Positions 13,298-13,311 of a DNA stretch of 64,000 bases are shown here, in pieces. Source of the DNA: Escherichia coli (lineage in GTDB: Bacteria > Pseudomonadota > Gammaproteobacteria > Enterobacterales > Enterobacteriaceae); the NCBI RefSeq assembly GCF_041886205.1, contig NZ_CP169029.1. The stretch is one strand, 5' to 3'. Each line of letters starts with the position of its first letter. Positions within the stretch are counted from its first letter, which is position 1. The notes under the pieces are model-generated. The model worked only from the letters and a program-made list of their open reading frames with translations, did not search any database and was not told the DNA's origin. Position numbers and translations under genes: made by a program.

Positions 13298-13311
13298 TTG
13301 ATTCCTATCAA
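13298..13311 (+). promoter_or_regulatory. FNR box upstream of yhjA
   Basis: TTGAT-tcct-ATCAA, perfect FNR consensus about 110 bp upstream of the yhjA start. Confidence 0.65.

Follow-up and report, generated by a model that had tools for sequence, protein, structure and literature searches.

A perfect FNR box in the ccp (yhjA) promoter of Escherichia coli and its conserved register with an OxyR-type motif across Enterobacterales

At the canonical OxyR-dependent promoters, those of katG, ahpC and oxyS, OxyR abuts the -35 region. The OxyR consensus attributed to Toledano et al. in 1994 is said to consist of four ATAG-type elements at 10-bp intervals, ATAGnTnnnAnCTAT-N7-ATAGnTnnnAnCTAT. At promoters of the nirB/nrfA type, FNR depends on a second regulator with its own signal, NarL/NarP, and the nucleoid proteins IHF and Fis dampen expression; at nir, NarL acts by anti-repression. 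Class II FNR promoters, such as narG, nirB, dmsA and yfiD, share a TTGAT-N4-ATCAA box lying over the -35 region, and FNR sites near -41.5 have been associated with activation (PMC3688515). The closest described system is the yhjA (ccp) promoter of E. coli K-12 studied by Partridge, Poole and Green in 2007, which is the same locus as the one analysed here, with an identical box, OxyR-type motif, -10 element and leader; the FNR site of the ccp promoter is already known, having been published in that year. As that study is summarised in PMC10301912, yhjA is regulated by OxyR and FNR, and the same paper describes its transcription as 'likely to be restricted' to conditions of low oxygen in the presence of peroxides. 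Regarding each regulator separately, the curation paper of the RegulonDB group gives both as activators of yhjA, FNR acting under anaerobiosis (PMC4207228), and ccp is counted among the genes that are induced by OxyR in H2O2 stress, the induction of Ccp by OxyR in hypoxia allowing the respiratory chain to use H2O2 as terminal oxidant (PMC8115020).

The window considered here is the whole stretch of E. coli DNA that was analysed, 64,000 nucleotides of contig NZ_CP169029.1 (assembly GCF_041886205.1), and the features of the promoter and of its flanking genes are collected in Table 1. An earlier note on this DNA had described a perfect FNR palindrome about 110 bp upstream of the cytochrome c peroxidase gene yhjA, in the region from which treF diverges, and this description holds in its position, in its distance and in its gene assignments. 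The box, TTGATTCCTATCAA, stands exactly where it had been placed and matches the core of the TTGAT-N4-ATCAA inverted repeat at 10 of 10 positions, forming a perfect core palindrome centred at 13304.5, and no other perfect match exists on either strand of the 64 kb. Its centre lies 114.5 bp upstream of the ccp ATG, with 107 nt between the end of the box and the start codon. A CRP site was considered and rejected, as the half-sites read TTGAT/ATCAA and not the TGTGA/TCACA of the CRP half-site consensus.

The identity of the flanking genes is supported by the RefSeq annotation ('ccp: cytochrome c peroxidase' and 'treF: alpha,alpha-trehalase'), by the score of the treF product against its family model and by the three CXXCH haem motifs of the Ccp product, which also possesses an N-terminal hydrophobic segment and matches the MauG/MbnH-type di-haem families below their curated cut-offs. 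The two genes are separated by an intergenic region of 404 bp, and a match to the 801 bp around the box, with 95-100% identity and in each case chromosomal, is present in 5422 of the 5426 complete E. coli genomes.

Table 1. Features of the treF/ccp region, in positions of the window
Feature	Position	Strand	Remarks
treF ORF, divergent upstream	11365-13014	-	TreF model NF009773, 1216 bits
OxyR-type site ATAG-N7-CTAT-N7-ATAG-N7-(t)CAT	13253-13289	+	ends 8 bp before the FNR box
IHF core-consensus match AATCAATCAATTA (WATCAANNNNTTR)	13291-13303	-	overlaps the left FNR half-site; weak evidence
FNR box TTGAT-TCCT-ATCAA	13298-13311	.	sequence, uniqueness, conservation; predicted FNR site in PMC3688515 Table S6
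-10 hexamer TATGAT	13333-13338	+	5/6 to TATAAT; 21 nt after the box
Predicted transcription start	13344-13347	+	inferred arithmetically from the -10 (start ~7 nt after the hexamer)
Inverted repeat GTCTC-gca-GAGAC	13345-13357	+	perfect; at the predicted transcript 5' end
Leader hairpin CTCAC-cacc-GTGAG	13396-13409	+	MFE fold; 3' arm abuts/overlaps the Shine-Dalgarno-like GAGGGAAG
ccp (yhjA) CDS, 465 aa, regulated gene	13419-14816	+	ORF, RefSeq annotation, haem motifs

By count alone, the single perfect match is suggestive and not significant, since dinucleotide-preserving shuffles of the window contain a mean of 0.11 perfect TTGAT-N4-ATCAA boxes, with at least one in 10 of 100 shuffles. The reading that the palindrome arose by chance and regulates nothing can draw on this frequency, as well as on the lack of a ChIP-seq peak in one genome-wide study (PMC3688515). 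When one mismatch is allowed, 8 FNR-like boxes are present in the window against 3.16 expected. One-mismatch boxes are also found at 24095-24108 and 24159-24172, 64 bp apart and within the first ~150 bp of the coding sequence of gadE, a minus-strand gene whose start codon is at 24239-24241. By coordinate arithmetic, the latter box, TTGATTTTTATCAT, corresponds to K-12 position 3656458, which PMC3688515 assigns to gadE and records with an FNR ChIP-seq peak. The non-chance status of the ccp box is taken from its conservation, and not from the number of matches.

Within E. coli, conservation was followed with megablast, which drops a 30-base query if any SNP lies in its central 26 bases. The 30-mer 13284-13313, having the box in its central part, was matched in 5392 of the 5426 complete genomes (99.4%), each match being an exact stretch of at least 28 bases that covers the box. 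Moving the query by 6 bp to the right (13290-13319) reduced the matches to 3964 of 5426, so that about 27% of the genomes differ somewhere within it. This lower count is due to a common SNP at 13317, outside the box, as the alignment of divergent strains places frequent polymorphisms just downstream of it (13317 G>A and 13321 C>T), while the box itself, the -10 hexamer and the upstream ATAG/CTAT elements are invariant among the divergent strains sampled. From 13179 to the ATG, a segment comprising the OxyR-type motif, the box, the -10 and the leader, the window is identical to K-12; the intergenic region has just three differences (13050, 13152 and 13178), which all precede 13253. Consequently, the experiments performed in K-12 carry over to the window, as every difference lies upstream of the promoter elements.

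A scan for the Ccp protein with one genome per species gave 41 loci, and in most of them a box with 0-1 mismatch is located at a distance of some 93-128 bp from the aligned start of ccp. The distance is 78 bp in an Enterobacteriaceae metagenome-assembled genome (MAG) and 227 bp in Providencia heimbachae, these being the outliers, and the Yersinia ccp ORF has a GTG start 18 nt downstream of the aligned one. Among the orthologous boxes, an Escherichia sp. carries TTGATTCTTATCAA and E. albertii a version with one mismatch; around 15 Citrobacter have TTGATACTTATCAA or TTGATAATTATCAA upstream of ccp, Providencia has TTGATAAAAATCAA and TTGATGAATATCAA, and the Enterobacteriaceae MAG has TTGATACCTATCAA. 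The box upstream of ccp departs from the consensus by one mismatch each in Trabulsiella, Hafnia, Enterobacillus and Yersinia and by two in Pluralibacter, Buttiauxella and Entomohabitans. In Entomohabitans teleogrylli, each of two contigs of the same strain bears a ccp copy, with the two-mismatch box at the usual position in one copy only. Outside Escherichia and Citrobacter, a box with at most one mismatch is present in 6 of 10 genus representatives, against a chance of 0.7-8% per genus as estimated by mononucleotide shuffles of each 400-bp upstream region.

The search for a box upstream of ccp homologues gave none in the betaproteobacterial Saezia, in two Lachnospiraceae MAGs and in Chloracidobacterium. 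The homologue of Saezia sanguinis shares 73% identity with Ccp and has no FNR-like box within 400 bp upstream, and the presence of this gene in Saezia may reflect horizontal transfer; the homologues of the two rumen Lachnospiraceae MAGs, at 41-42% identity, likewise have no FNR-like box within that distance.

Across at least eight genera the half-sites are kept, with spacers as different as TCCT, TCTT, ACTT, AATT, GAAT, AAAA, ACCC, AGTG, TGTT, AAAG and ACCT, and preserved half-sites around a freely varying spacer are the signature of selection on protein contacts. This cross-genus pattern, the near-invariance of the box in 5392 of 5426 genomes beside polymorphic flanks, its constant spacing to the -10 and OxyR elements and, in the literature, FNR dependence (PMC10301912, PMC4207228) and binding in vivo (PMC2690998) all speak against a chance palindrome, which we regard as scarcely credible.

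The box could also, or instead, control the divergent treF, a possibility raised by ChIP-qPCR from Lemmens et al., where FNR was bound in vivo at both yhjA and treF (PMC2690998). These two signals count as one observation, because both genes share a single 404-bp intergenic region and ChIP-qPCR cannot separate two promoters within it. Moreover, the centre of the box is 290.5 bp from the treF start codon (13014), the sole sigma-70-like match facing treF (13073-13044) lies more than 230 bp from the box, and the -10 element, by its orientation and its spacing, points towards ccp. The distribution of the genes points in the same direction: treF is the upstream neighbour of ccp in Escherichia and Citrobacter only, and no treF homologue was found within 2.5 kb of ccp in eight other genera, where the box, the OxyR motif and the -10 nevertheless accompany ccp. 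As the box is retained upstream of ccp even without a neighbouring treF, it belongs to ccp, and treF was rejected as the main target. Control of treF is consequently improbable overall; a main role there is unlikely, and a secondary effect may occur, considering that treF shows an oxygen-dependent change only in a delta-hns/delta-stpA strain (PMC3688515).

For the anatomy of the ccp promoter, 24 orthologous upstream regions were stacked on the box. All 24 promoters have a hexamer whose second base is A and whose last base is T, starting 22-24 bp after the box and reading TATTAT, TATCAT, CATTAT, GATAAT and others in the other species. Similar to the class II FNR promoters, ccp presents no recognizable -35 hexamer, and a -10 that follows the box by 21-23 nt would bring the centre of the box near -40.5 to -42.5. 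A generic sigma-70 scan gave no promoter on the ccp strand, as expected when the box occupies the -35 region of an activator-dependent class II promoter. From the predicted start, the FNR centre would fall at -39.5 to -42.5 and the leader would measure 72-75 nt, so that the -10 hexamer alone suggests a class II position for the box, near -40.5/-41.5.

The predicted transcript would open with the inverted repeat at 13345-13357, which might form a stem-loop at the 5' end of the mRNA or serve as an operator. Citrobacter has variants that keep its complementarity (GTCT..AGAC and GTCTT..AAGAC, and, as judged by eye, GTCC..GGAC in C. amalonaticus), and the repeat was not recovered by RNAalifold on the MAFFT alignment, in which loop lengths differ and the alignment is poor at this place. 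Regarding the hairpin that precedes the start codon, its five pairs are nearly invariant among 9 Escherichia/Citrobacter sequences, with one pair broken in one sequence and a variable loop, and no covariation appears among these nine. The last ~45 nt of the leader (13375-13418) are far more conserved between Escherichia and Citrobacter than the remainder, and the predicted fold of the entire leader is no more stable than those of shuffled sequences (z = -0.85); a leader riboregulator is not claimed, given this value and the absence of covariation.

Immediately upstream of the box there is an OxyR-type motif, which the earlier note had missed when it attributed the control of yhjA to FNR; its assignment of FNR stands, and as an account of the promoter it is incomplete. 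The first three elements of the motif are perfect (13253-13278) and the fourth is weak (13286-13289), with 16 of 20 positions agreeing with the OxyR consensus. When the window was searched for ATAG-N7-CTAT-N7-ATAG with at most one mismatch, 2 matches were obtained, both perfect, compared to 0.20 expected and a maximum of 1 in shuffles. The second match, ATAGGGTGGTTCTATGTTATATATAG, lies at 25600-25625 on the minus strand, in the hdeD/hdeA divergent region, and overlaps the hdeD start codon (25610-25612). In the stacked orthologous regions, where the motif reads ATAGG-N6-CTAT-N7-ATAG, the distance from its first base to the box is exactly 45 bp in 23 of 24 species.

As in the katG, ahpC and oxyS promoters, the ATAG/CTAT elements of ccp are spaced by 10-11 bp over ~37 bp; unlike in those promoters, FNR takes the -35-adjacent place, while OxyR would sit upstream at about -74 on a motif with a weak fourth element. 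With the nirB/nrfA type, ccp shares an FNR site, here in a predicted class II position, that has a second activator site immediately upstream, as well as an enrichment of nucleoid proteins over the promoter, and it differs in the nature of the second regulator, which is the LysR-type peroxide sensor OxyR instead of a nitrate/nitrite response regulator.

The published genome-wide data were then compared with this layout. In Myers et al. (2013), the reverse complement of the box, TTGATAGGAATCAA, is a predicted FNR site at K-12 position 3667319, assigned to yhjA/treF with a PatSer score of 14.16 (PMC3688515 Table S6), a value above the threshold of that table and in its mid-range despite the perfect core. 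The score of the yfiD site is 17.25, and the TCCT spacer of ccp departs from the preferred T-rich/A-rich one (PMC3688515). No FNR ChIP-seq peak is recorded at the yhjA/treF site in anaerobic glucose minimal medium without peroxide (PMC3688515 Table S6), setting ccp apart from the class II FNR promoters, as does its need for a second activator, and none was found at 36669xx-36676xx in the wild-type or delta-hns/delta-stpA peak tables of the same study. Also in glucose medium without peroxide, yhjA is not in the table of FNR-dependent operons, and its aerobic/anaerobic ratio is 0.50, an expression only ~2-fold higher in anoxia, unlike dmsA or narG (50-fold) in the same data set (PMC3688515). The direction of this ratio was verified with cyo and sdh, which are above 30, and with dms, nar and hyc, which are below 0.06.

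FNR alone is probably insufficient at the ccp promoter, given the missing peak and the weak anaerobic induction; both observations, made without peroxide, argue for insufficiency of FNR and not for a non-functional box. Conservation as described here, together with the published genetics and ChIP-qPCR, shows that the box serves ccp as a functional FNR operator. The anaerobic activation of yhjA proposed by the earlier note is thereby upheld by published regulation, by ChIP-qPCR in vivo and by conservation across genera, with the reservation that, in the absence of peroxide, neither an FNR peak nor more than the ~2-fold increase accompanies it. FNR dependence of yhjA, whose absence that note had named as the result that would count against it, had already been published (Partridge 2007, as summarised in PMC10301912).

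The same data can be explained differently, by a genuine FNR box that is occluded by H-NS and/or IHF, with OxyR mainly relieving the occlusion and FNR being bound only beside oxidised OxyR. The site is inside a 5431-bp H-NS region (3661953-3667384, spanning gadW-gadX-gadA-yhjA) and inside an IHF ChIP-chip region (3667035-3667586, Table S4), and the same study argues that nucleoid proteins mask ~90% of the 'silent' predicted FNR sites, which, besides the missing peak in anaerobic glucose, speaks for such occlusion (PMC3688515). In addition, the IHF core match overlapping the left half-site has no counterpart elsewhere between the two genes, compared to 10 such matches in the window and 0.06 expected per 404 bp, and the OxyR motif keeps its fixed 45-bp register with the box across genera. 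On the other hand, ChIP-qPCR in another study did detect FNR there (PMC2690998); the IHF match, kept in Citrobacter and absent in E. albertii and Providencia, is not conserved beyond Escherichia/Citrobacter; and the fixed register is equally expected if both activators contact RNA polymerase. Taken together, we consider such a masked site unlikely, although still worth keeping in view, and it is somewhat more doubtful that OxyR acts mainly as an anti-silencer, with H-NS/IHF keeping the box inaccessible until oxidised OxyR binds 8 bp upstream of it. If the latter were true, the invariant 45-bp register in Enterobacterales would reflect direct or DNA-mediated cooperativity between a LysR-type tetramer and an FNR dimer. 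As for the mode of cooperation between FNR and OxyR, joint contacts with polymerase are given a higher weight than anti-silencing, which is held to be a doubtful main mode.

The preferred reading takes the palindrome as the operator through which FNR acts on the ccp promoter, and this promoter as an AND gate with OxyR, and we hold this to be very probable. Under anoxia, the [4Fe-4S] FNR dimer would bind the box at about -40.5 to -41.5, overlapping the -35 region, and would activate RNA polymerase in the class II manner, a step that is inferred, including the contacts between protein and polymerase. A tetramer of peroxide-oxidised OxyR would occupy the adjacent ATAG/CTAT repeats, centred at about -74; the motif and its register were seen here, and the dependence on OxyR comes from the literature. 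According to the literature, both proteins would be needed for strong transcription, so that the periplasmic tri-haem peroxidase would be produced only in anoxic cells exposed to H2O2. This two-input logic agrees with what was observed in the absence of peroxide, namely a weak anaerobic induction and no ChIP-seq peak. Once Ccp is made under anoxia and H2O2, the respiratory chain would take H2O2 as a terminal electron acceptor, as described in the literature.

As a positive control for genome scanning, the locus has value in that a reading of the sequence alone recovered an operator with experimental support. It also indicates that a box of perfect consensus can be 'silent' in ChIP-seq when the partner signal is missing. 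The present analysis adds that the box is almost completely fixed in E. coli and that the layout of OxyR, 45 bp, FNR, 22 bp and -10 is conserved across Enterobacterales; this cross-genus conservation adds modestly to what was known and does not define a system of a new type. For the biology of the organism, the box would be the anoxia input of a two-signal switch, no O2 and H2O2 together, that limits Ccp to H2O2-respiring conditions, as already published, and this switch bears on life at the boundary between oxic and anoxic zones, for example at the gut wall.
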